The notes under the pieces are model-generated. The model worked only from the letters and a program-made list of their open reading frames with translations. It searched no databases and was not told the origin of the DNA. Shown here one piece after another: positions 2,838-61,986 of a DNA stretch of 64,000 nucleotides; the first letter of the stretch is position 1, and each line of letters starts with the position of its first letter. Position numbers and translations under genes: made by a program. The stretch lies in NCBI GenBank assembly GCA_038078255.1, contig JBBUEH010000002.1:7534-71533 (forward strand), in the 5' to 3' direction. Origin of the DNA: Patescibacteria group bacterium (GTDB lineage Bacteria > Patescibacteriota > Minisyncoccia > Phycocordibacterales > UBA9973).

Positions 2838-2865
2838 AGAAATAATTTAACATCTTTAAAATAAA

Positions 2866-3126
2866 ATGGGGGAAAAAACTAATTCATGGAAAGCTACTCC
2901 CGAAGAATTGGAAAACTTTAGAAGCAGGGCAGAAAGAACACGGGAAAAACAAAAAGAACATCGAGCACCAGCGAAGAAAGATCTTGAGGCAACTATTTTG
3001 CAAATTGAAGAATGGCTGAAAGATCAAGAACAAAAAAGAAATTCAGGTGAGGAAATAGATAAAACCCAAATTGAAAGAGAAAAAGAAAGACTTGCTCAAC
3101 TTCGACAAGAACTAGAAAGTTTATAA
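2866..3126 (+). CDS. hypothetical charged/coiled-coil small protein (possibly cargo or junk next to the IS element)
   Basis: 86-aa ORF rich in K/E/R/Q with no recognisable domain. It ends exactly at the left hairpin of the IS element. Confidence 0.2.
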   Translation: MGEKTNSWKATPEELENFRSRAERTREKQKEHRAPAKKDLEATILQIEEWLKDQEQKRNSGEEIDKTQIEREKERLAQLRQELESL

Positions 3127-3890
3127 TAAATGAGCAAGGGTAGTCCTTGCTCATTATTTGAGTTTGTGTATAATATATAGATGTATCGTAAAGCTCCATT
3201 TATTGAAAATGAACACTATCATATTTATTCTCGAGGAGTAGAAAAACGAAAAATTTTTCTTAATACAAAAGACTATAACCGTTTTGTGGCTCTTTTATAT
3301 ATTATGAATCAAAACATATCATTTAGAATGGATAATTTTTTGCGTAATGGAGAAAAAGACCTGGGAGAAATTTTCAAAGAGAAAAGGGGGGAAACTTTAG
3401 TGTCAATTCTAGGTTATTGTCTTATGCCAAATCATTTTCATATAATTTTATATGAACACACGGAGGGTGGGATTAGTAAATTCATGGGAAAACTTTTAAC
3501 CGCTTATTCAATGTATTTTAATACTAAATATGAGCGAAGTGGTCCCCTATTTACGCATCCTTTTAGATCAGAACACATTAAAGACGAGCCACAGTATATG
3601 TATATATTTTCTTATTTACACCTTAATCCACTTTCAATCATTTATAAAGAGTGGAAAGAAAATGGTATCAAAAATCGCCAAGAAGCAGAAAAATTTTTGA
3701 GAGAGTATAAATTTTCAAGCTATCAAGACTTTCTAGAAAAAGATCGATTGGAATCAGCAATTATTGATTTTATTCGTATCCCAAAATATATCAAGAATAT
3801 GAAATTAAATATAAAAACACAAGAACAAATATTTTCTGATAAAAGATCCATCGAGAAGCTTTGAGCAAGGACTACCCTTGCTCAAAGCTT
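3127..3890 (+). mobile_element. IS200/IS605-family single-ORF element (RAYT-like), bracketed by mutually inverted REP-like hairpins
   Basis: Left hairpin 3131-3153 is TGAGCAAGGGTAGTCCTTGCTCA; right hairpin 3862-3884 is TGAGCAAGGACTACCCTTGCTCA, the exact reverse complement. The right end extends to a 35-nt palindrome AAGCTTTGAGCAAGG..CCTTGCTCAAAGCTT at 3856-3890. The Y1 transposase ORF lies between them. Confidence 0.75.
3181..3864 (+). CDS. tnpA: IS200-like Y1 (HUH) tyrosine transposase TnpA / REP-associated tyrosine transposase
   Basis: HUH motif in LMPNHFHIIL and catalytic-Tyr region AYSMYFNTKYERSGPLF; typical IS200/RAYT N-terminus YHIYSRGVEKRKIF. Confidence 0.8.
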   Translation: MYRKAPFIENEHYHIYSRGVEKRKIFLNTKDYNRFVALLYIMNQNISFRMDNFLRNGEKDLGEIFKEKRGETLVSILGYCLMPNHFHIILYEHTEGGISKFMGKLLTAYSMYFNTKYERSGPLFTHPFRSEHIKDEPQYMYIFSYLHLNPLSIIYKEWKENGIKNRQEAEKFLREYKFSSYQDFLEKDRLESAIIDFIRIPKYIKNMKLNIKTQEQIFSDKRSIEKL

Positions 3891-20775: not shown

Positions 20776-21000
20776 TTTATTTACGGGGCCGCCTTTTTTT
20801 CTTACTTCATTCTTTCTTCTCCTTTCTTCCGAACAGGGTTCGGAAGAACCTTCTCACCCTCCACCCCACCGGGGGTGGAGGGGGGTTCAGAAACAGGGGG
20901 TTGGAGAGATGCTCAAAAGATCCTCCCCAACCCTCGTTCCTCAGGGAAAACCGACTTGATCGGGTTTCCCTGCACCATCCTGTAACCATGGTGTGGTTCC
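20776..21000. repeat. structured GC-rich intergenic block: GCGGCCCCGT..ACGGGGCCGC hairpin plus a cluster of palindromes sharing the AGGGGGTTGG / CCTCCCC cores of repeat family 1; possible structured RNA
   Basis: GC content is far above the local background. It contains CTTCCGAACAGGGTTCGGAAG, CCTCCACCCCACCGGGGGTGGAGG and CAGGGAAAACCGA..TCGGGTTTCCCTG hairpins. The overlapping ORF 20807-21037 is judged spurious. Confidence 0.45.
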
Positions 21001-22721: not shown

Positions 22722-24728
22722 GTGAAACACCAGACGAACAAACTTCAGGGCATCATTTCAATTTCCTCCAAAGGTATTGGATATGTCGCCATTGGTGAAA
22801 ATAAAAATAAAGGGCAAGATCCAGAAATTGATTTCCGGCATTTGAACACTGCGCTCCATGGAGACACGGTGGAAATACTGCTCCATCCTAAGGGACACGG
22901 CAGGCAGACTGCTGAAGTTTCAAAAATAATTTCCCGAGCGAAAATGAACTTCGCCGGGGTGTTGGAAGTGGAGAATAAAATGCATTTTTTGAAACCTGAC
23001 GATAGTAAAATGTACACTGATATTTTAATTCCTGAAAGAAATTTACATGAGGCGAAGGTTGGGCAGAAAGTTTTCGTCGAAATAGTTTCCTGGCATGACT
23101 CCCGCAAAGCGCCAGAGGGAAAGGTGGTGAAAATTCTGGGTCAGCCTGGAGACAATACCGTAGAAATGCATGCGATAGCTTTAGAGAAGGGTTTCGCCGC
23201 AGAACTTCCAAAGAAAGTGGAAGACGAAGCAAGAAAAATCAAAATACTAGGAATGCAAAAAGCTGATTTTGTGGGACGGAGAGACTTTCGAAAAATTCTA
23301 ACCTTTACCATTGACCCCTCTGATGCAAAAGATTTTGATGATGCAATATCATTTAGAGAGCTCCCCTCCTTGAGTAAGGAGGGGGTTGGGGGTGGTAATT
23401 CCAAGCACCACCTCGCCTCCGGCACTCCTCCTTCAAAAGGAGGAGAGGGATTATTTGAAATAGGCATTCACATTGCCGATGTTTCGCATTTCGTGAAGGT
23501 CGGTAGCGCTCTCGATCTTGAAGCGCAAGAACGAGGAACCTCTGTGTATTTAGTCGACAGAACTATCCCCATGCTTCCAGAAACTTTATCAAATGATTTA
23601 TGTAGTCTCGTCCCTCACAAAGATCGACTCACCATGAGCGCCGTTTTTGTCTTGGATAAAAATGCTCAGGTGAAAAGCGAATGGTACGGACGAACTGTGA
23701 TTCATTCGCAAAAAAGATTTACTTATGAAGAAGCAGAAGTATCCATCCATAGGTCTGACGCTCCCCTGCATAAAGAATTAGCTATTTTAAATACTTTGGC
23801 AAAAAAATTAACTAAAGAAAGGTTTACGCAAGGTGCTATATCACTTGACCAAGAAGAAGTAAAATTCGTTTTAGATAAAAAGGGAGTGCCTCTCAAAGTA
23901 TTAAAAAAAGAACGAGGTGATTCCAACAGACTGATTGAAGAATTTATGCTCCTAGCAAATAAAAAAGTAGCGACGGTGTTGTCTCCCTATCCCTCTCTCT
24001 ATCGAGTGCACGATCTGCCGAGTAAAGAAAAAATGGCCGACTTGGCATTTTTCTTGCGTAGTTTAGGACATAAAGTGTCTCTCCGGGACGGAATAATTCC
24101 GACTCATGAGATAAATAAATTATTAGAAAATTTAGAAGACAAAAATGCAAAAGAAAACCTGAGTGATACTGTGCATCGAGCCGTCATTAGATCGATGGCG
24201 AAAGCCGTTTATTCGACCAAAAACATTGGACACTATGGATTGGCATTTTTATACTACACTCACTTTACCTCGCCAATTAGACGATATCCGGACATCATCA
24301 TCCATCGATTGCTTCAAGATTTTCTTTCTGGAAAAAAAAGAAAAAAAGAAAATATGCGAGAAAAAGTTTTAGAATATGAAAAAATAGCCAGGATATCATC
24401 CGAACAAGAAAAAAGGGCCTCCGATGCCGAAAGAGCCTCTATTAAATATAAACAAGTAGAATATATGTCTCTCCGTATGGGAGAAAAATTCGAGGGTATT
24501 ATTAGTGGTATTACCGAGTGGGGTCTATTCATTGAAGAAAAGGAAACAAAATGTGAAGGTATGGTACGAGTCCGAGATATGCAGGATGACTTTTATATTT
24601 TCAACGAAAAAAAATTAGAATTAGTAGGACAAAAAAAGAAAAAGAAATATCGCTTGGGTGATCGAGTGAAAATAAAAGTGAAAGGAGTTGATTTAGAACG
24701 AAAAACCATAGATTATATTTTAAGATGA
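22722..24728 (+). CDS. rnr: ribonuclease R (RNB family 3'-5' exoribonuclease)
   Basis: Cold-shock/OB N-terminus; RNB motifs DFDDAIS and GIHIADVSHFV; C-terminal S1 domain. Confidence 0.9.
   Translation: MKHQTNKLQGIISISSKGIGYVAIGENKNKGQDPEIDFRHLNTALHGDTVEILLHPKGHGRQTAEVSKIISRAKMNFAGVLEVENKMHFLKPDDSKMYTDILIPERNLHEAKVGQKVFVEIVSWHDSRKAPEGKVVKILGQPGDNTVEMHAIALEKGFAAELPKKVEDEARKIKILGMQKADFVGRRDFRKILTFTIDPSDAKDFDDAISFRELPSLSKEGVGGGNSKHHLASGTPPSKGGEGLFEIGIHIADVSHFVKVGSALDLEAQERGTSVYLVDRTIPMLPETLSNDLCSLVPHKDRLTMSAVFVLDKNAQVKSEWYGRTVIHSQKRFTYEEAEVSIHRSDAPLHKELAILNTLAKKLTKERFTQGAISLDQEEVKFVLDKKGVPLKVLKKERGDSNRLIEEFMLLANKKVATVLSPYPSLYRVHDLPSKEKMADLAFFLRSLGHKVSLRDGIIPTHEINKLLENLEDKNAKENLSDTVHRAVIRSMAKAVYSTKNIGHYGLAFLYYTHFTSPIRRYPDIIIHRLLQDFLSGKKRKKENMREKVLEYEKIARISSEQEKRASDAERASIKYKQVEYMSLRMGEKFEGIISGITEWGLFIEEKETKCEGMVRVRDMQDDFYIFNEKKLELVGQKKKKKYRLGDRVKIKVKGVDLERKTIDYILR
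23361..23450 (+). repeat. family-1 GC-rich palindromic element inserted in frame in rnr (encodes LPSLSKEGVGGGNSKHHLASGTPPSKGGEG)
   Basis: Three hairpins: CTCCCCTCCTT-GAGTA-AGGAGGGGG, GGTGGT-AATTCCAAGC-ACCACC and CTCCTCCTT-CAAA-AGGAGGAG. The 90 nt make 30 codons sitting between DFDDAIS and HIADVSH. Confidence 0.7.
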
Positions 24729-32866: not shown

Positions 32867-35286
<2,420 letters not shown>

Positions 35287-35303
<17 letters not shown>

Positions 35304-36753
35304 CTAAATTTTTTTCTATTATTTTATTTCCTTCATTGTACGCCACATGCATTTCTTCCCCATTTTTCTTAAACACTGTTCCTATTTCAAAAATTTTTAT
35401 TTCACTTAGGCCTAGAAATGAGGCATTTATTTTATTTAATTTTACACTCTCCAGCAATCCATCACTCAAATTCGTTCTCAAGAATTTTTTATCAGAAGCA
35501 CTTTGCATAACTTCTACTTCGCCCTTATCTCTAAAAGTATAAGTCATCACTTCATTGTATCCATCAGCTAATAATTTCTTCCTCACCCATTCTATTTTGG
35601 CGTAAGTTTCATTTACTTTAGGTTTAAAGTTTATTTTAGGTATATTCCCTTTTATTTTATCGTAACCCAAAATTCTTCCTATCTCTTCCGCCATATCTTC
35701 TTCTATCTCTAAATCAAGGCGCATCATCGGCACAGTTATTTTGAATACTCCTTTGTTTTCTGTATATACAAAATTATATCTTTTCAAAATATCTTCAATC
35801 TCATCACTCGACACATTCAAACCTAAAATTTTAGAAATTCTCTCTGCTGAAAAAGAAAGCTTTCGCTCTGCCTGTTTCTCTGGATAAGTATCTACAATGT
35901 CTTCAAACACTGCCTCTGGACACATCTCTAGAACTAAAGCCGAGAGTTCATGCATGGCATATGACGCAAGCTCGGGTGATAAATCATTTTCGAAACGCTT
36001 TCTGGCATCGGTAAAAATATTAAGCGCTTGACCTGTTTTTCTAGCAAACACTGGATCAAAATTATCAGCTTCCAAAATAAGGTCGGTCGTGGAAGTCGTA
36101 ATTTCTGCGTATTTGCCTCCCTTGATGCCCGTATCAAGCGGATTTCCTTCTCCGTCAGAAATAATTACCATTGTATTATTTAATTCCTTTTCTTCTCCGG
36201 TAAGTAAAGTTATTTTTTGTCCATTTTGAGCAGCGTTAATATTTAATCGAGCACCCTTTACTTTATTCAAATCAAAAGCATGAGTGGGTTGCCCACAATC
36301 AAACATCACTAAATTCGTTGCATCTACTATATTATTTATTGATCTCTGCCCAATTGATTCTAAATGTTTTACTACCCACTCTGGTGAAGGACCAATTTTT
36401 ACATTACGCACAATGCGCCCGACATGTCTGCGATCTTTTGCTGTATTTATTTCTATTTTTAATTCAGTTGGCTTGGATTCTGGAATTTTATATTTTGCCG
36501 TTGGATCAACAAAGTTAATATTCAAAAGTGAGGCAAGTTCACGAGCAATGCCTAGATGAGAAAGTAGATCATGCGCCCGATTTGGCAAAATATTTATATC
36601 AAAAATAAAATCACCACCCCCAGCCCCCTCCTCCCCAAGGAGGGGAGTTAGACTCTCAACCTCAGCAATATGATAAGTAATAATATCTGCTAGCTTCTCT
36701 GCTTCTGGAGCATCCGGTATATACCATTTAAGCCAATTGTAAGAAATTTTCAT
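35287..36753 (-). CDS. pheT: phenylalanyl-tRNA synthetase beta subunit (reduced form), C-terminal domain split off
   Basis: N-terminal MKISYNWLKWYIPDAP... and B3/4 and B5 core. Carries an in-frame family-1 element (LLGEEGAGGGD). Confidence 0.8.
36613..36650 (-). repeat. family-1 GC-rich palindromic element in frame in pheT
   Basis: CTCCTCCCCAAGGAGGGGAG hairpin. Shares AAGGAGGGGGNTGGGGGTGGT with the rnr and recG copies. Confidence 0.6.
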
Positions 36754-41138: not shown

Positions 41139-43250
<2,112 letters not shown>

Positions 43251-43305: not shown

Positions 43306-44319
43306 TTAATCTATTTCAATAGCGTTAATTTGAGCGTTATCCACAACTGTGATAAATTGAATTATAATTTGACCGCTTCCGTTTGCAGTAGCAGAAAAAC
43401 TTTTATCCACCGCCTTAAAATTAGACCCGACATCTTGAATTATATCAAAATTTGTAAGCACAGATGTGCCATTTATATTTACATTAAAAACTCTTTGTCC
43501 TGGGCTACTCCAAAAAATTTCTGCAAACTTTAGTATCACAGTATAAGATGCGCTAGGTGTTAGACCTGTTACAGTATAAGTCATATTTCCATATCTTAAG
43601 TCCTGATAAAGTGTCTGATCGCTAGTTCCGATAATGGAATTAGTCGTTGAATATAGACTTCCACCTGAAAAACTATTATCTGCGCTCCAACTTCTAGAAA
43701 GTGAATCTGTATAAGCTCCACCTCCAGAATTTATCAAAGCAACCGGTACGACTGAAGCCGCCCCAACCCCATAGCTAGCTTTAATCTCTCGTTCAATACG
43801 ATTCGGGTTAGATGAATTGCAAGAGGGATCGCCAATATTGTATCCTTTGGAAGTGAGGGTGGTGACGATAAAAGGAGGATCGATGGCGGCATCTTTAAAA
43901 ACACTTACCTTGGCGCAACTTGTCCCATTATTACTCAAACCAGTAACAAGAAAAGTGTAAAGTCCTGTATTAGTTCCGGCAGAATAAGTAGGTATGCCAG
44001 CTGCGCAAGTCAAGGCTGTGGCCGGCCCAGCTACGGAGAATTTACTAACGGGCTTATCATTCATGAGCGCGCATTCGATGCCAGTATCAGCCGCAAAAAA
44101 GGCTTCATTGGTGTCTTTCGCCGAAGTGCTAAATTTCATTTCTTTAAGCGTAATATTAGAAACACCCAAAGCTATTGCCAAAATAAGGCTGGAGAGCGTC
44201 ACGGCAAAAAGGATGACGAATCCTTTTTTATTTTTAATTTTTAATATTATTTTTATCATTTGATTTAACGAAATCATGCCGCGCAATCGTCCATTAAAGC
44301 GCAGCGCTATTCTATCCAA
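43306..44319 (-). CDS. large minor-pilin-like protein (PilX/GspK-like) with prepilin-type N-terminus
   Basis: KKGFVILFAVTLSSLILAI N-terminal hydrophobic segment; secreted beta-rich remainder. Confidence 0.45.
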   Translation of the reverse strand: MDRIALRFNGRLRGMISLNQMIKIILKIKNKKGFVILFAVTLSSLILAIALGVSNITLKEMKFSTSAKDTNEAFFAADTGIECALMNDKPVSKFSVAGPATALTCAAGIPTYSAGTNTGLYTFLVTGLSNNGTSCAKVSVFKDAAIDPPFIVTTLTSKGYNIGDPSCNSSNPNRIEREIKASYGVGAASVVPVALINSGGGAYTDSLSRSWSADNSFSGGSLYSTTNSIIGTSDQTLYQDLRYGNMTYTVTGLTPSASYTVILKFAEIFWSSPGQRVFNVNINGTSVLTNFDIIQDVGSNFKAVDKSFSATANGSGQIIIQFITVVDNAQINAIEID

Positions 44320-44927
44320 TTAAATAAATTCTCAGAAAAAACAACACTATAATTACCAGAACCCTGCGACCAAGAAACAGTGGAAATAATTTTTGTTTCG
44401 TCGGCGCTTACCACCACTGTTCTAATTTTTCTAGTTAGACCAGAAGCTGTCCCAGAAAAACCATATTTGCCTGTCGCAGAATTGTACAAAAGAGCTCCAT
44501 TGGAACAAGTAGAAGATGCGCAAGCAGTCAACGCAATATCAATCATTGGTTGGGTACTATCACTATAATTTAAACTATCAGCGTTAATATAACAACCGTT
44601 CACCCCGTTGCAGGCAGAAATATCAACCAGGGTGGCATTAAAATTATTCCAGCCTGTCTGCGCTCCGCCAGAATAAAGCATATAAGTATCCCGCATATTT
44701 CTCATATATTCAACACCCTCTTGCGCCAAATATGAAGCAATGACTTTCCTTTTGGCATAGCCTGTATTGGAAATCCCTTGAGCTAAAATCCCAAGCAATG
44801 CCAAAATCGATGCGGTAAAAATTGAAACAGCCACCAGCATTTCTACTAAAGTAAAGCCCCGCCTGCAAAAGCTATGCTTTAAGCATGGCGGGCAGGCCTT
44901 CTTCTTTTGTTTGCGAAAAAGTTTCAT
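44307..44927 (-). CDS. type IV (pseudo)pilin-like protein with 24-aa leader containing an in-frame family-2 palindromic insertion
   Basis: CRRG/FTLVEMLVAVSIF prepilin cleavage motif and hydrophobic helix. The leader MKLFRKQKKK[ACPPCLKHSFCRR]G. Confidence 0.6.
   Translation of the reverse strand: MKLFRKQKKKACPPCLKHSFCRRGFTLVEMLVAVSIFTASILALLGILAQGISNTGYAKRKVIASYLAQEGVEYMRNMRDTYMLYSGGAQTGWNNFNATLVDISACNGVNGCYINADSLNYSDSTQPMIDIALTACASSTCSNGALLYNSATGKYGFSGTASGLTRKIRTVVVSADETKIISTVSWSQGSGNYSVVFSENLFNWIE
44859..44897 (-). repeat. family-2 GC-rich palindromic element (39 nt = 13 codons) inside the prepilin leader
   Basis: GCCTGCCCGCCATGCTTAAAGCATAGCTTTTGCAGGCGG, homologous to 48197-48268 and 60076-60114. 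Confidence 0.65.
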
Positions 44928-44936
44928 GGTTATTTT

Positions 44937-45569
44937 TTAAACATCTATCAACCTTTGAGACACTGAAGTTTGAAGTGAAAAAGGCGTTGCGATATTATTA
45001 ATGGTGACGGTGCCGACCAATCTGATGGTGACAAAAGGTTGTTGCTGATTTCCGACTGGCGCCTCGGCGCCCAGAATGGAAAAAGATGAAGCAGTGGTAT
45101 TGACAACAACCTCATTTGGAGTTAACTGAACAAAATTAGAAAGAATATAGGGTCCTTGAGTAGACTTAAAAAGTTTTCCAGTGCCATCAATATAATAAAC
45201 CCATTGATCGTTAGTCACACCAGGATCAGGATCACCAAAGGCATATTCGAAGGCGATACCCCAGCCACTTGCGCAACTCTTTGGATCATCCATGATGGGA
45301 GAGTTATCACTACTTGGGATCGTGTCCCCCGAGACAAAGCAGTGATAATTATACCCTGTCCTTAAATTTCTAGACATATCTTCCATCACAAAACTTAAAT
45401 TATCCAGAATCGAACGCATGGTCTGCGATTTACGATGAACTGCGTTCGCATTTAAAAGAACTCCCATGCCCGTCATGACCACCACCAGAAAAATAGAAAT
45501 CGAGATCATTGTTTCTATTATCGTGTATCCCTGATTTAATTTATGAATTTTTTTCAAAAATAATTTCAT
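44937..45569 (-). CDS. type IV minor pilin / pseudopilin
   Basis: NQG/YTIIETMISISIFLVVV prepilin N-terminus. Confidence 0.55.
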   Translation of the reverse strand: MKLFLKKIHKLNQGYTIIETMISISIFLVVVMTGMGVLLNANAVHRKSQTMRSILDNLSFVMEDMSRNLRTGYNYHCFVSGDTIPSSDNSPIMDDPKSCASGWGIAFEYAFGDPDPGVTNDQWVYYIDGTGKLFKSTQGPYILSNFVQLTPNEVVVNTTASSFSILGAEAPVGNQQQPFVTIRLVGTVTINNIATPFSLQTSVSQRLIDV

Positions 45570-45583
45570 TACTTTTTAATTAC

Positions 45584-46237
45584 CTAATTCACCTGCACCC
45601 TGCCTGAAGGATAAAGTTTTATTTTAGCAGTCGCTCCTTTGGGAGAAAGAATATTGATCTCGACATAATAAATCGAGGAGGCAAGAGGAGGATTTGATTT
45701 AATGATAGCGCCTGAGTTGGGTCTCATAAAGGTGACTGTGAGATTATTTATGGGATTAGGGGTGGTCGGAGTGCCGGAATAAAAAACATTCATGCTAGAA
45801 ATAGTGTTGCCCTTGGTAATGGTGATTTTCTCTAGACATTCCCCAGTGCCCGGACAAGTAGAAGCTTCATATAAACCGTTTTGTGAAGGATTTTTAAAAT
45901 CAGTGAAAAAAGTAAAACTTTTATTGTCCGCTATCCGATCGACAAAAACTCCATAAGACGGTTTCCAGGTTGGATCACTACTCGTATAGGTACTTTGGGC
46001 GACTGGAGGGAATTTACCAGAAAGAGATGCTTTCTGCGCTTCCACTACTTTCAAAGCGATATCACTGGCCAAAATTTTAATATCTATCTGCGCTTGAAAT
46101 CCTCCGTAATTATAAACAACGATAGAAGACATGACCGAAATAATAGACAGGACAACAATCAGCTCCACATAAGTCATTCCCCCATTCTTTTTTAATTTTT
46201 TTAATAAAAGTAACATAAAATTAAAAACCAACAGCAA
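45584..46237 (-). CDS. type IV minor pilin / pseudopilin
   Basis: KKNGG/MTYVELIVVLSIISV prepilin N-terminus. Confidence 0.55.
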   Translation of the reverse strand: MLLVFNFMLLLLKKLKKNGGMTYVELIVVLSIISVMSSIVVYNYGGFQAQIDIKILASDIALKVVEAQKASLSGKFPPVAQSTYTSSDPTWKPSYGVFVDRIADNKSFTFFTDFKNPSQNGLYEASTCPGTGECLEKITITKGNTISSMNVFYSGTPTTPNPINNLTVTFMRPNSGAIIKSNPPLASSIYYVEINILSPKGATAKIKLYPSGRVQVN

Positions 46238-47036
46238 AAAAGTTTAACTGCAAGACAAACGCTACGAATGCGCCACCAACCAAATATATAGCAAAAGGAA
46301 TTTCACTTTTCATTCCGTAACCCCAACCATAAATCTTGGAGAAGAAAATAAGCCCAAGCCCGGTCAGGGCTCCAGAAAAAAAAGCCAAGACAAGGGCAGA
46401 AAGCACAGCCGGGAAACCGAGGAGCCATCCGAGTCCTAAAATAAGTTTAGCGTCTCCGAGACCCATCCAAGCGCCCCGAGACACAAGCCAAAGCAGAGCA
46501 AAGGGTAAGGCTACTAATATTCCAGACAAAAATTCTAACAACGAAGGAATATGCGGAAAAAATCCATAACTATTATTAAAGATAAATAAACCAAAAAACG
46601 CTAAAATTCCAAAAAGAAAAACAAGGGTGTCGGGAATTATCTTATGCCTTAAATCATAAACTGCAACAATCATTAGAATAGAAAACATGCTGGCGTAATA
46701 TAAATAAGAAATGACGAAGTCTAGAATAGATAAAAGAAAAAGATCTTGAAACTTAAAAAACAAAATAACGAAAATTAAGCCAGTGATGACTTCAACCAAG
46801 GGATAGATGTGTGATATTCGTGTCTGACAAGTTCTACATCTTCCTTTAAGAGCCAGAAAACTAAACAATGGCACAAGATCATACCAAGCAAGATTGTACT
46901 GACAAGACATGCAGGCGCTTCTTCCACCAAAAGATTTTTTGGTATTGAGCCGGCAAATTACAACATTTAAAAAACTCCCAATAATAAGACCCAGAATAAA
47001 GAAAACAAAAGAAATGAGAGGAAGAATGGATATCAT
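46221..47036 (-). CDS. pilD: prepilin peptidase (A24 family, PilD/ComC)
   Basis: Polytopic membrane protein; the IGSFLNVVICRL and LGDAKLILGLG Asp-containing motifs are characteristic of A24. Confidence 0.85.
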   Translation of the reverse strand: MISILPLISFVFFILGLIIGSFLNVVICRLNTKKSFGGRSACMSCQYNLAWYDLVPLFSFLALKGRCRTCQTRISHIYPLVEVITGLIFVILFFKFQDLFLLSILDFVISYLYYASMFSILMIVAVYDLRHKIIPDTLVFLFGILAFFGLFIFNNSYGFFPHIPSLLEFLSGILVALPFALLWLVSRGAWMGLGDAKLILGLGWLLGFPAVLSALVLAFFSGALTGLGLIFFSKIYGWGYGMKSEIPFAIYLVGGAFVAFVLQLNFFAVGF

Positions 47037-47047
47037 TTTAAATTATG

Positions 47048-47575
47048 TTAATTGCAAGTAAAACTGCTACTATTGATAGCTCCTGCGGGGACAGAATTTA
47101 CCATTTTGGCTGTTCCTGTAGTATCTACGCACCAAGAAGTGCCTAGTGTTAATTTCAAGCCCACGGCCACAGCCCAAGCATTGGCGGAGTTATAACAAGA
47201 ACTGCCATTGCCTCTCTTGATTGCTTCGGCTAAAGCATCAGCGATAACTTTGTCTTTAGACAGCATGTTGGTCCCCTGTGGGTCATAGTTAGGACAAGCG
47301 CCAGCAACATTAACGCCACCAGCTGGCAAATATGAATTAAGATTATTCAGAAAAAAAATTTCAGCCACTTGTCGCAAGGTAGCTAAATTAGTCTTGACAG
47401 CTGTATCATTACCTTTATTCCTAGCATCACCCGAGTTAACTAAAATAACTGACGCCAAAACACCGATAATCGCCACGACAACTAAAAGTTCAATCAAGGT
47501 AAACCCGCCCCCCTTCGGGGTCACACCAAATTTTGGTGTGCGGGTAAATCCTTTTTCTAAATTTATTTTTTTCAT
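47048..47575 (-). CDS. type IV pilin with 24-aa leader carrying a 36-nt palindromic insertion flanked by a 9-bp direct repeat
   Basis: MKKINLEKGFT[RTPKFGVTPKGGGFT]LIELLVVVAIIG, with the canonical G/FTLIELL processing site. Confidence 0.75.
   Translation of the reverse strand: MKKINLEKGFTRTPKFGVTPKGGGFTLIELLVVVAIIGVLASVILVNSGDARNKGNDTAVKTNLATLRQVAEIFFLNNLNSYLPAGGVNVAGACPNYDPQGTNMLSKDKVIADALAEAIKRGNGSSCYNSANAWAVAVGLKLTLGTSWCVDTTGTAKMVNSVPAGAINSSSFTCN
47498..47551 (-). repeat. palindromic mini-insertion CGCACACCAAAATTTGGTGTGACCCCGAAGGGGGGC flanked by direct repeats GGATTTACC / GGGTTTACC (TSD-like)
   Basis: Perfect palindrome CACACCAAA|TTTGGTGTG plus ACCCGC/GCGGGT outer arms. Insert plus one DR is 45 nt (15 codons) and duplicates the GFT cleavage tripeptide. 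Confidence 0.65.
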
Positions 47576-47627
47576 AAAAATTTATTAATACTTATAATAC
47601 TTTATATTATATCACATCTAAAAACAC

Positions 47628-47665
47628 AAAAACCACCTTTTGTGGTCTTACTTAAGGTGGTTTTT
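47628..47665 (-). terminator. Rho-independent terminator AAAAACCACCTT-loop-AAGGTGGTTTTT between the two pilin genes
   Basis: 11-bp stem with a U-run on the minus strand after pilin 47688-48086. Confidence 0.65.
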
Positions 47666-47687
47666 GAAAAACAAAATTTATGTTTTA

Positions 47688-48086
47688 TTATGGACAAACT
47701 GTAATAGCCCCTAACCCTGCGGCAGTTGATTTTGAGGTTCCTGTACTATCTACACACCAGCCGCCAGAAGATTTTAGGCCCGCCCATCCGGCCCACGCAG
47801 TAGCACTGGCTGTACATACTCCTCCATTACCCCCTGCCAATACAGCTGCAGCTTGAGCTTTGGCCATATTTGCATCAGCGCAAACTCCTGTGTAAGTTGA
47901 TCCTATATCGTAGAACAACTCAGCCTGTGCTCTCATATTTGCCAAGTTTGCCTTGACGGCCGCATCGGCGCCTTTGGCCCGCGCAGTGTTTAGTGATGCC
48001 AAAACAACCGAGGCAAGAATCCCGATTATTGCAACAACCACCAAAAGTTCAATCAATGTAAAACCTTTTTTAAAGTTCATTTTCAT
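47688..48086 (-). CDS. type IV pilin (canonical short leader)
   Basis: MKMNFKKG/FTLIELLVVVAIIGILASV; C-terminal Cys pair. Confidence 0.8.
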   Translation of the reverse strand: MKMNFKKGFTLIELLVVVAIIGILASVVLASLNTARAKGADAAVKANLANMRAQAELFYDIGSTYTGVCADANMAKAQAAAVLAGGNGGVCTASATAWAGWAGLKSSGGWCVDSTGTSKSTAAGLGAITVCP

Positions 48087-48196: not shown

Positions 48197-48268
48197 CCTG
48201 CCCGCAATGCTTTCAGCATACCCGCCAGCAACGCTTCGCATAGCGATGCGGGCTGGGCCTGATGCAGG
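48197..48268. repeat. family-2 GC-rich palindromic element, intergenic copy (with internal expansion)
   Basis: CCTGCCCGCAATGCTTTCAGCATACCCGCC...CGCATAGCGATGCGGGCTGGGCCTGATGCAGGCGGG. Same termini (CCTGCCCGC[A/C]ATGC...GCAGGCGGG) as the 44859 and 60076 copies. Confidence 0.6.
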
Positions 48269-48285
48269 CGGGATCTAGCTAATTT

Positions 48286-59723: not shown

Positions 59724-61986
59724 CAAATTAGAATTAAAATTCCGCTTAGATGAAAAACAAAAAAAAGCTTTGCGTAAGCTGAAACTTTTCTCGGTGGCTG
59801 ATCTCTTATACCACTTCCCTGTCAGATATAGCGACATAAGTACAGTGAAAAAAATTAGCGAACTAATTCCCGGTGAAATTGCCACGATCTATGGAAAAGT
59901 TTCAAATTTAAAAACTAAAAAAGGTTTCCACTCCAAGATTCCCATGGCAGAAGGCACGATTGAAGATATCTCTGGAAAAATAAAAATTATTTGGTTCAAC
60001 CAAGCGTATCTGGCAAAAATGCTTCATGAAGACGATAGCGTTAAACTCACGGGCAAGGTGACTCAAAGTAAAAGTCCTGCCCGCAATGCCTCCAGCATAG
60101 CTGGCGCAGGCGGGGGTATATACCTAGCCAATCCAGAATTTGAAAAAGTGCCAGATATGCCAATAGATGCGCATGATACTCTTTTTAGACCCCCTCGCCC
60201 TTTGGGCACTCCCCCTTCGCAGGGGGAGAGGATTCCTCCCCGCCTTAAGAAGGAGGGGGCAGGGGGTGGTCTCTCTTACCCCATCTATGCTGAGACCCGT
60301 GGAATAACTTCCAAGTGGTTTTATCATGCGATTGAAAAATTCTTGAGAGAAAAAACTCTCGATGGTGTTGCAGACTATCTTCCGAGTGATATTTTAAAAA
60401 AATATAATTTACCAGCCTTGAAAACTTCGTTCATCTGGATTCATAAACCGAAAAATAAAAACGATGCTGAATCTGCGAGGAAAAGATTTGCCTTTGAGGA
60501 AGTTTTTTGCATCCAACTCGAACGACAACATGACAAATTTGAATATAGGAAAAATAAATCTTTCCAAATTGTTTCGGAAAAAGAAAATGTTGAGAAGTTT
60601 TTAAAACGCTTTCCTTTTGAACCCACAAATTCTCAAAAAAAATCCATTGAAACAGTACTGGAAGATATGTCAAAAGATTTTCCAATGTCCCGTCTGCTTG
60701 AAGGAGATGTAGGGTCTGGGAAAACTGCCGTAGCGGCAACGGCAAGCTATATAACAGTGGCGCAAAGACCCTTCGACCACACTCAGGGCAAGCCACAAAA
60801 TTTCGGTAATCTGCAGGTTGCCTACATGGCACCGACAGAAATACTAGCCACCCAACACTTCGAATCATTCATTGAATATTTCCAACATCTGCCAATCAAT
60901 ATCGGACTGATTACTGGATCCGGTTGTCGTAAATTTCCTTCCAAAGTAAATCCGAGTGGCTGGACCACCATCTCTCGAGCACAACTATTGAAGTGGGTAG
61001 CCAATGGAGAAATACCAATTCTAATCGGCACCCATGCCCTCATTCAAAAAACAGTTAAATTTAAAAACTTGGCGCTCGTGGTAATAGATGAACAGCATAG
61101 ATTTGGCACGGAACAAAGAAGGAGATTAGTTAAAAAAGATGGACTGGCACCACACCTCCTCTCCATGACTGCCACTCCCATCCCTCGCACCCTGGCGTTC
61201 ACTATTTATGGCGATCTCGATCTCTCCCTCCTCGATGAAATGCCTCTGGGACGAAAACAAATAATTACAGAAATTATTCCGCCCAATAAAAGAGAAGAAA
61301 CTTACGAACAAATCAAGCAGGAATTAAAAAACGGCAGACAACTTTATGTAATTTGTCCGAGGATATTTGCACCTGACCCTGAAAAAGAATTAGCGCTGAA
61401 TGTAAAGTCTGCCACAGAAGAAGCTAAGCGATTAAAAAAAGAAGTTTTTCAAAAATATGAAATAGGCGTCTTGCACAGCCAGATGAGTAAAATTAAAAAA
61501 GAAGAAATAATGAAGGAATTTGCGAATGGCAAATTGAATATTCTCTGCGCCACCTCGGTAGTAGAAGTGGGTGTCAATGTGCCGAATGCTACAGTGATTG
61601 TTATTGAGGGCGCTGAACGGTTTGGTCTAGCCCAACTTCATCAACTTCGTGGACGAGTCATCCGAAGTAACCATCAAGCGTATTGCTACATTTTTGCCGA
61701 TGCTAAAAGTGACAAGACAATTGCCAGATTAAAAGCTCTCAAAACTGCCAAGAATGGCTTTGAATTAGCTGAACTTGACTTGACCCTCCGGGGCGCAGGC
61801 GAACTCGGCGGGACCAAACAGTGGGGCATCACCGACCTCGGCATGGAAGCGATTAAAAATATAAAAATGGTAGAAGCCGCCCGCACTGAAGCTATAAGAA
61901 TAATAGCCGAAGACCCTGAACTAAATAAATACCCTCTGCTTAAACAAAAAGTTCATGAAAAAGCTGGAGAATTCCATTTTGAGTAA
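59710..61986 (+). CDS. recG: ATP-dependent DNA helicase RecG with two in-frame palindromic-element insertions in the N-terminal domain
   Basis: RecG N-terminus (LGI.TV.DLLYHFPVRY), helicase motifs I to VI and C-terminal TRG motif. Insertions at 60076-60114 and 60189-60270. Confidence 0.9.
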   Translation: MKWSDKLELKFRLDEKQKKALRKLKLFSVADLLYHFPVRYSDISTVKKISELIPGEIATIYGKVSNLKTKKGFHSKIPMAEGTIEDISGKIKIIWFNQAYLAKMLHEDDSVKLTGKVTQSKSPARNASSIAGAGGGIYLANPEFEKVPDMPIDAHDTLFRPPRPLGTPPSQGERIPPRLKKEGAGGGLSYPIYAETRGITSKWFYHAIEKFLREKTLDGVADYLPSDILKKYNLPALKTSFIWIHKPKNKNDAESARKRFAFEEVFCIQLERQHDKFEYRKNKSFQIVSEKENVEKFLKRFPFEPTNSQKKSIETVLEDMSKDFPMSRLLEGDVGSGKTAVAATASYITVAQRPFDHTQGKPQNFGNLQVAYMAPTEILATQHFESFIEYFQHLPINIGLITGSGCRKFPSKVNPSGWTTISRAQLLKWVANGEIPILIGTHALIQKTVKFKNLALVVIDEQHRFGTEQRRRLVKKDGLAPHLLSMTATPIPRTLAFTIYGDLDLSLLDEMPLGRKQIITEIIPPNKREETYEQIKQELKNGRQLYVICPRIFAPDPEKELALNVKSATEEAKRLKKEVFQKYEIGVLHSQMSKIKKEEIMKEFANGKLNILCATSVVEVGVNVPNATVIVIEGAERFGLAQLHQLRGRVIRSNHQAYCYIFADAKSDKTIARLKALKTAKNGFELAELDLTLRGAGELGGTKQWGITDLGMEAIKNIKMVEAARTEAIRIIAEDPELNKYPLLKQKVHEKAGEFHFE
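60076..60114 (+). repeat. family-2 element in frame in recG (encodes SPARNASSIAGAGGG)
   Basis: CCTGCCCGCAATGCCTCCAGCATAGCTGGCGCAGGCGGG, near-identical termini to 48197-48268. Confidence 0.65.
60189..60270 (+). repeat. family-1 element in frame in recG (encodes PPRPLGTPPSQGERIPPRLKKEGAGGG)
   Basis: GGCACTCCCCCTTCGCAGGGGGAGAGG (B module) followed by AAGGAGGGGGCAGGGGGTGGT (A module 3' half). Hairpins CCCCCT-TCGC-AGGGGG. Confidence 0.65.

Follow-up and report, generated by a model that had tools for sequence, protein, structure and literature searches.

How does a type IV prepilin come to carry a leader peptide of 24 codons next to a paralogue with an ordinary short one, where do the extra codons come from, and how are they tolerated? 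These questions are raised by a window of 64,000 nucleotides (nt) from a Patescibacteria group bacterium (the whole stretch of DNA analysed here; contig JBBUEH010000002.1, positions 7,534 to 71,533), in which a type IV pilus cluster runs in the order pilT, pilC, pilin, pilin, prepilin peptidase, minor pilins, with the pilC-pilin-pilin-peptidase synteny kept in related loci. The paralogous pilin (47688..48086), located 110 nt upstream of the host pilin, starts with MKMNFKKG·FTLIELL (raised dots mark cleavage points in proteins and element boundaries in DNA), whereas the host pilin contains 15 extra codons (45 nt, in frame) between Gly(-1) and Phe(+1). Because the paralogue and most homologues lack these codons, they represent an insertion. 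The coding strand of the host pilin begins with ATG AAA AAA ATA AAT TTA GAA AAA GGA TTT ACC, continues with CGC ACA CCA AAA TTT GGT GTG ACC CCG AAG GGG GGC and goes on with GGG TTT ACC TTG ATT GAA, which matches exactly, on the minus strand, the reading of this leader (47498-47551) in an earlier note made from the letters alone. We consider it likely that the insertion is a 41-nt non-autonomous palindromic mobile element together with a target duplication of 4-5 nt (Table 1), of which near-identical copies are found in the prepilin genes of other genomes.

Element boundaries and target duplication

The earlier note had described a 36-nt element with a palindrome and ACCCGC/GCGGGT arms, set between the copies of a 9-bp direct repeat. 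The palindrome and the arms are indeed present, and the window contains a single occurrence of the 19-nt palindrome and a single one of the 36-nt core, with none expected from 100 shuffles; the length, though, had to be revised to 41 nt, running from CCCGC to GCGGG. Across the copies described below, the inside of this 41-nt segment is 93-100% conserved and the bases beyond it vary with the host gene. Additionally, all copies, whatever the native codons, have ACC as the codon to the left of the core and GGG as the Gly codon to its right, and therefore both belong partly to the element. The 45 extra bases correspond to one copy of the 41-nt element plus the target duplication (4-5 nt).

Structurally, the element folds into an outer stem, ACCCGC/GCGGGT, around two hairpins, with the variants of hairpin 1 among copies falling mostly in the apical loop (AAAATTT, AAATTTT or AAAACTT). 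The RNA fold of a 71-nt region scores −29.1 kcal/mol (z-score −4.0), a value equalled by none of 200 shuffles, and a 57-nt stretch over the element folds at −15.7 kcal/mol with DNA parameters. The inverted termini, CCCGC/GCGGG, are very short, at only 5 nt (6 with the flanking A/T), and are kept in all copies; past these 5-6 nt the two halves of the element are not inverted copies of one another. An Rfam scan of 47400-47700 in E-value mode returned sub-threshold matches only, the best being tracrRNA with 19.9 bits against a gathering score of 70. A hammerhead-type three-way junction was considered and dropped, as the junction strands, judged by eye, do not show the conserved core of that fold, and so was an intrinsic terminator or attenuator, since the consensus scan did not flag the element.

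Table 1 Features of the filled pilin locus and of the vacant site in its paralogue (window positions)
Feature	Position	Strand	Detail
Host type IV prepilin, 175 amino acids (aa), intact	47048..47575	(-)	Pfam N_methyl at residues 23-45, E=1e-7
Prepilin peptidase gene, directly downstream of the host pilin	46221..47036	(-)	Pfam A24_N_bact 2.9e-30, Peptidase_A24 1.1e-12
Leader peptide MKKINLEKGFTRTPKFGVTPKGGG, 24 codons (9 without the insert plus its duplication)	47504..47575	(-)	
Left target copy TTTA, part of the relic Phe-Thr codons now within the leader	47545..47548	(-)	
41-nt element proper, CCCGCACACCAAAATTTGGTGTGACCCCGAAGGGGGGCGGG	47504..47544	(-)	5-nt inverted termini CCCGC/GCGGG; boundaries set by about 27 other copies
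Hairpin 1, CACACCAAA-A-TTTGGTGTG	47522..47540	(-)	
Hairpin 2, CCCC-GAA-GGGG	47510..47520	(-)	C(UUCG)G-type loop on the + strand
Right target copy TTTAC, Phe(+1) and Thr(+2) codons of the mature pilin	47499..47503	(-)	
Vacant TTTAC target at G·FT of the paralogous pilin 47688..48086	48058..48062	(-)	ATGAAAATGAACTTTAAAAAAGGTTTTACATTGATTGAA

The flanking 9-mers, GGATTTACC and GGGTTTACC, are identical at 8 of 9 positions, so that the flanks are alike as the earlier note had said; a duplication of 9 nt, though, does not stand, the rest of the repeat being element termini. The native far-left Gly codon (GGA, GGT, GGG) varies with the host, and the native Thr codon (ACC, ACA, ACG, ACT) varies only in the right-hand copy. 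On these alignments, insertion duplicated 4-5 nt of target, T(T/A)YA(C), and the 9-bp repeat is a composite. Flanks of prepilins of the Tyr type read TACA/TACAC (L031; L numbers designate fetched loci), TATA/TATAC (L037, L039) or TACA/TATAC (L003, L036), and those of TTC-type sites read TTCA/TTCAC (L014, and twice in L033). Over the 38 insertions of the superfamily, which includes the sister classes described below, 31 flank pairs match perfectly, and the left copy departs from TTTA only if the right copy departs too (Fisher p=4e-6). Because the flanks co-vary in this way with the native host codon (TAY, TTC), the duplication derives from the target. The orientation relative to this asymmetric target is identical in all 27 copies of the element, hereafter class A (p=1.5e-8). 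The opposite orientation would give an open frame too, also ending in Gly (GFTRPPSGSHQILVCG·FT), and therefore orientation is set by the insertion mechanism rather than by selection for a reading frame.

Empty sites, copies in other genomes and predicted leader processing

A search with the host pilin gave 1531 matches, those with a named source coming from Patescibacteria, Paceibacterota or Nomurabacteria. A cleavage motif could be recognised in 117 homologues, of which 89 have leaders of <17 aa and 7 carry the 'GFTRTPKFGVTPKGGG·FT' leader of the window pilin. Genomic context was recovered for three homologues (P0002, P0118 and P0005): P0002 (filled) and P0118 (filled, 56% identical) occupy the position of the window gene, between the first pilin and the peptidase gene, and the syntenic orthologue in L004 (P0005), directly upstream of the peptidase gene, has an empty site, AAAGGTTTCACG·TTGATTGAA. 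The empty sites that the earlier note proposed to look for are found, then, in an orthologue at the same locus as well as in the short leaders of most homologues. A naturally long (type IVb-like) ancestral leader is contradicted both by this same-locus orthologue without insert and by the identical DNA in non-homologous leaders.

Copies of the core were collected with exact-pattern scans of one genome per species and of metagenome contigs, with duplicates removed. The species genomes contained 10 core copies in 9 genomes (eight with one, one with two) and the metagenomes 19 more in 18 contigs, which gives about 27 distinct core-bearing contexts besides the window. These are major-type pilins (8), 'FTLVETLVAISIFT' minor pilins (10; orthologues of the window open reading frame (ORF) 44307..44927), 'G[YF]TIIETM' minor pilins (5; orthologues of the window ORF 44937..45569), other prepilins (2) and intergenic sites (2; L018, upstream of recA, and L022). 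In 25 of 27 copies the position is G·F/Y-T, and the prepilins concerned belong to four or more non-orthologous types. Pairwise identity averages 97.6% for the 41-nt element (minimum 92.7%) versus 49% for the 60 nt downstream, even though the latter encode the most conserved part of the pilin. At the DNA level, the pilC and pilT genes of the hosts share 70-78% identity with the window, and the PilC proteins of L005 and L028 show 25-33% identity. Evolutionarily, because vertical descent cannot account for one sequence in four genes that are not orthologous as well as at two intergenic sites, the element has moved between genes and lineages. We thus have high confidence in what the sequence comparison indicates, namely a discrete element that spread horizontally, and its near-identity across diverged hosts points to recent movement between gene types and lineages. 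Together, the empty sites and the dispersed core copies, in species genomes and metagenome contigs alike, give a positive outcome for both checks proposed in the earlier note and support its reading of the insert as the footprint of a mobile element. At L036 (3040-3135), two class A units stand in tandem (TACA·A·TATA·A'·TATAC), the second of them decayed, which shows a unit-length duplication, probably by exchange between flanking repeats.

Sister classes were recognised among the long leaders of two protein searches; their interiors differ, and they have in common the architecture TTTA·CCC(G/A)...GGG·TTTAC with a hairpin interior. Class B, TTTA·CCCACCAAAATTTTCTAAAGAAAATTTCAGGCGGG·TTTAC (L032, L033 twice, L038, L039), and class C, TTTA·CCCGCACACTTTCAAGTAAAGTGTCTGGG·TTTAC (L034), have a single hairpin each, a 75-nt member lies at L003:5665, and a 'CCCC(C/T)ACAC' class occupies prepilin leaders of L037 (FTPTLFKGKGVGLSSRRG·FT and YTPTPFKRKGVSPHRERG·YT). 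Common tips, hairpin interior and flanks are what an enzyme that reads tips and structure would give. The window and the loci then fetched were scanned by regex plus folding for T[TA]YA-CCC...GGG-T[TA]YAC, and matches lay only in prepilin leaders and at the intergenic L022, apart from one artefactual match that spans into the L028 pilin ORF; no further element copies were found in the 64-kb window.

Other inserts were observed in the same leaders. Class D (G-R/L-K/A-A/V-L-S-x-S-K-G; L003:2890-2925, L019, L024:4368, L026:1118, L033:8079 and 10290, L006:6350) sits one codon upstream, between Lys and Gly, has an A(A)GG-type short flanking repeat and often shares a leader with class A or class B, resulting in double insertions. 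At L035 (2382-3505), adjacent pilin paralogues have an identical 30-nt class E insert (GSASACRRRDG·FT) and near-identical leaders, which suggests gene conversion. Directly after the intergenic class A copy of L018, a different, perfect hairpin of 70 nt (1356-1430) starts with TTTA·CCCCCACACCTGTTTTTGCGA and is related to the 'CCCC(C/T)ACAC' class of L037.

Functionally, an insertion at this site could be neutral for the mature protein. The terminal GGG of the element would supply a new Gly(-1) and the duplicated TTY-AC a new Phe-Thr, whereby the canonical G·FT(L/I)xE site would be rebuilt just downstream of the insert; the prepilin peptidase, whose intact gene lies next to the host pilin, would then cut off the insert with the leader and leave the mature pilin unchanged. 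Because of the conserved G·FTLIE motif, cleavage is predicted between GGG (47506-47504) and TTT (47503-47501). Concerning the claim of the earlier note that the insertion lands in a segment that is proteolytically removed, the location within the leader is confirmed and removal is the predicted outcome. In all filled prepilin genes the right-hand site keeps its G, F/Y, T and E(+5), and the left-hand Gly has been lost in L023 and L029 (GCA) and in L003:5665 (ACA). Because the right-hand site is intact everywhere while the left relic decays in some loci, the former is marked as the functional one, and we hold with moderate confidence that the elongated leader would be processed normally. Most variants within the element change the encoded amino acid (R>H, K>N, F>L), and decayed relics are present (the second tandem copy in L036, L003:2272, P0039 and P0215), which together imply that neither the peptide nor the in-situ nucleotide sequence is strongly constrained, and the intact copies are probably of recent date.

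Proposed mobilisation and rival explanations

Mechanistically, the copies show that the element inserts in a fixed orientation at T(T/A)YA(C) and that, in Paceibacteria-type Patescibacteria, it is retained almost exclusively at the Gly-Phe/Tyr-Thr codons of prepilins. With low confidence, we suggest that a trans-acting enzyme of a piggyBac/IS1380-like, cut-and-paste kind would move it, as such enzymes fit best because of the 4-nt A/T-rich duplication, the CCC...GGG tips across sister classes and the seamless empty orthologous sites. Elements of the piggyBac type duplicate TTAA, end in CCC/GGG tips and excise seamlessly, and their distant prokaryotic relatives are the IS1380 transposases (PMC7351741, PMC10140906). 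The element resembles these systems in its tetranucleotide duplication and CCC...GGG tips, and the junction of tandem copies, GGG·TATA·CCC, can be set beside GGG·TTAA·CCC in piggyBac; it differs from them in a target, T(T/A)YA, that is non-palindromic and not TTAA, in being inserted one way in 27 of 27 copies rather than in either orientation, and in a length, 41 nt, far below that of known functional ends.

Comparison with other families of small elements gives a similarly mixed picture. As in MITEs (miniature inverted-repeat transposable elements), there are terminal inverted repeats and a target duplication of fixed length, but not many dispersed copies per genome. Rickettsia palindromic elements (RPEs) are about 100-150 bp long, occur in tens of copies per genome and in many unrelated genes, and are kept in the mature protein. 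The pilin element is likewise palindromic selfish DNA that stands in frame in coding genes and is tolerated (45 nt, ORF intact), but it differs from RPEs in having 41 nt, 1-2 copies per genome, one specific site and predicted proteolytic removal. Repetitive extragenic palindromes (REPs), their REPIN arrangements and the REP-associated tyrosine transposases (RAYTs) compare in the size range of 20-40-nt G+C-rich hairpins and in a RAYT-like Y1 gene in the same window; REPs, though, are extragenic and high-copy, whereas the element is intragenic (25/27) and low-copy, duplicates its target and has no GTAG-type box, and the hairpins that flank the Y1 gene are unrelated to it. The IS200/IS605 insertion sequences (ISs) and palindrome-associated transposable elements (PATEs) share with it the oriented insertion by a 4-5-nt, TTAC-containing target and the hairpin anatomy, but here the target is duplicated, with the right copy derived from the host, and the element lacks a pair of similar left-end and right-end hairpins. 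By analogy only, inteins and self-splicing introns are also selfish inserts in essential or conserved genes, neutralised by removal after expression; here, however, the host prepilin peptidase would remove the insert with a leader that is discarded anyway, and no activity is encoded by the element. The literature searched yielded no description of such elements. What we describe is of a known kind, miniature palindromic in-frame mobile DNA, and is unusual in its near-exclusive occupancy of a processing site that it would itself rebuild, its fixed orientation and its 1-2 near-identical copies per genome across distant hosts.

Several observations weigh against a mobile element as proposed here. 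No transposase partner was found, the sole transposase-like gene of the window being of the Y1/IS200 type and accompanied by unrelated hairpins, and neither the window nor 259 kb of loci showed a complete parent IS sharing these ends, although no search was aimed at parent ISs and Pfam was run on 7 window ORFs. A strictly fixed orientation is unusual for DDE transposons. Seven of the 38 flank pairs are imperfect, with none that pairs a canonical right copy with a deviant left copy and with a left copy of TTTA or TTCA in six of the seven; these pairs may reflect a different joining chemistry, which would speak against our proposal, or else the left copy, being unconstrained, may have drifted later, the right copy may have reverted under selection, or the joining reaction may have some peculiarity of detail. 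No closely related pair of filled and empty strains turned up, and the closest homologue of the window pilin is only 71% identical. With 1-2 copies per genome, and one in the 64-kb window, the element is unlike the usual MITE or REP family. TTTAC occurs 235 times in the window, with 28 intergenic occurrences and only three or four at prepilin cleavage sites; because such sites are so abundant, a target of 4-5 nt fails to account for 25 of 27 copies in prepilin leaders. The prepilin bias could possibly stem from a longer recognition sequence, from strong purging elsewhere in compact genomes or from an advantage in pilin genes. Unrelated mini-palindromes in the same few codons (class D, class E and, in a minor pilin of the window itself, family F2) favour a 'safe harbour' explanation. 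As to a vehicle, none of the 50,697 phage records and none of the 72,556 plasmid records searched with blastn matched the element, and pattern scans of viral contigs did not find it.

A bolder version of the proposal, which we put forward tentatively and hold to be somewhat doubtful, is that of an undescribed mobile class of 30-75-nt hairpins with CCC...GGG tips, a T(T/A)YA duplication and a single orientation, which would home on prepilin Gly-Phe/Tyr-Thr codons across Patescibacteria and spread between distant lineages. Such hairpins would bring along, at their 3' end, the Gly codon for a rebuilt cleavage site, so that the host peptidase would 'splice' them out at the protein level. Under such homing, horizontal spread might proceed via the DNA-uptake pili that the target genes build, and reversible, seamless insertion and excision might act as a switch of pilin expression.

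Three other explanations have to be weighed against mobility by a trans-acting enzyme. The element could be a domesticated cis-regulatory hairpin (an attenuator, an operator bound by an RNA- or DNA-binding factor, or a reversible pilin switch) that acts in the mRNA or the DNA, kept as useful and with its mobile origin secondary. The near-exclusive occurrence in prepilin leaders at 1-2 copies per genome would suit this idea, as would a strong structure 30 nt into the ORF, the conservation of the sequence itself, beyond structure, across very distant hosts, and the fact that two different pilin genes in one genome can bear the element (L003/L008, L031, L033). We nevertheless regard it as unlikely, given that decayed copies persist in intact genes, two copies are intergenic, most orthologues lack the element, the stems show no compensatory changes (CGC>CAC breaks a pair of the outer stem), and neither a terminator flag nor an Rfam match was obtained. 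Improbable, too, is single-stranded mobilisation by a HUH Y1 transposase of the IS200/IS605 or RAYT type that inserts 3' of a TTAC-like, guide-matched target. An element made of hairpins and strictly oriented in its insertion recalls such systems, TTAC (within TTTAC) is the target of IS608, and Y1_Tnp genes are at hand, one in the window (3181..3864) and another, 46% identical to it, in L032 between a class-B-filled pilin and the peptidase gene. Yet this chemistry gives no target duplication and has an element-borne right end, whereas the right copy seen here changes with the host codon (TAC, TAT, TTC); both Y1 genes are bracketed by unrelated GCAAGG-loop-CCTTGC hairpins of their own, the pilin element has no GTAG box, and the NCBIfam RAYT model scores 39 bits against a cutoff of 80.

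Replication slippage or template switching at the quasi-palindromic GGT-TTT-ACC, followed by gene conversion and transfer of pilin genes, would dispense with an enzyme altogether. The site is indeed a small inverted repeat (GGT/ACC), pilin N-termini are conserved enough to recombine, the two L035 paralogues have an identical class E leader, and the tandem copy of L036 shows that unequal exchange occurs. Gene conversion cannot, however, duplicate a recipient-specific TACA or TATA on both sides, and the same 41 nt are found in prepilin types with flank identity of about 49% and at two intergenic sites, which brings this explanation close to refuted and makes it very improbable in our estimate.

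Implications and neighbouring palindromes

If the mobile element is real, its 41 nt would place it among the smallest mobile DNA elements known, with clear tips, target and orientation. It would also represent a new way for selfish DNA to persist in tiny, gene-dense genomes, namely within a discarded peptide and with a cleavage site that it rebuilds itself, and it would explain the oddly long annotated leaders of many Patescibacteria pilins (at least 17 aa in 24% and 35% of homologues in two protein searches). The near-identity between distant hosts would point to a trans-acting enzyme and a horizontal transfer route in organisms that cannot as yet be cultured, both of which could serve as genetic tools. 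Because the epibiotic lifestyle of Patescibacteria centres on the type IV pilus, effects on pilin expression would matter biologically as well.

Around the host pilin, a terminator-like hairpin followed by a T-run lies between the two pilin genes (47627-47666, minus strand), and an extended -10 motif, TGATATAAT, is located upstream of the filled pilin (47606-47614, minus strand). Because the hairpin and T-run separate the pilins and TGATATAAT precedes the filled one, the latter probably has its own promoter.

The IS200/RAYT-like Y1 transposase gene of the window (3181..3864, plus strand) matches Pfam Y1_Tnp with E=5.6e-9 and scores under the cutoff of NCBIfam REP_Tyr_transpos. A hairpin stands on either side of it in inverted copies, TGAGCAAGG-GTAGT-CCTTGCTCA (3131-3153) and TGAGCAAGG-ACTAC-CCTTGCTCA (3862-3884), and these two are the only copies of TGAGCAAGG-N5-CCTTGCTCA in the window. 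Among the 259 kb of fetched loci, Y1 homologues are confined to the window and L032, where a REP-like hairpin whose 5' box is GTAG-like, G-TAGCAAGG-ACCGT-CCTTGCTA, flanks the Y1_Tnp gene (2860-3680) in three copies.

Another palindromic family, CCTGCCCGCnATGCnTnnAGCATAGCTnnnGCAGGCGGGG, is represented in the window by two copies, both in frame. The first (44857-44896, minus strand) lies in the leader of the minor pilin 44307..44927 (KKACPPCLKHSFCRRG·FT) and the second (60076-60115, plus strand) within recG ('SPARNASSIAGAGGGIY'); leaders akin to this family, such as 'KKACPQCLQHRCCRRG·YT', were seen in the minor pilins P0158, P0228 and P0231. In-frame G+C-rich palindromes also occur in housekeeping genes, at 23363-23435 (+), 36607-36653 (-), 42905-42939 (-), 42176-42214 (-), 41887-41945 (-), 60185-60285 (+) and 34272-34315 (-), their hosts, named from N-terminal sequences, being rnr, pheT, ligA (three sites), recG and gyrB. 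Several of these palindromes encode a Pro-rich and then a Gly-rich stretch that ends in ...GAGGG, the one in gyrB is perfect over 21+21 nt, and none has the TTTA·CCC..GGG·TTTAC architecture. Finally, strong intergenic G+C-rich hairpins at 20845-20901 and 48221-48280, the latter separating pilC from the first pilin, may represent terminators or additional mini-elements.

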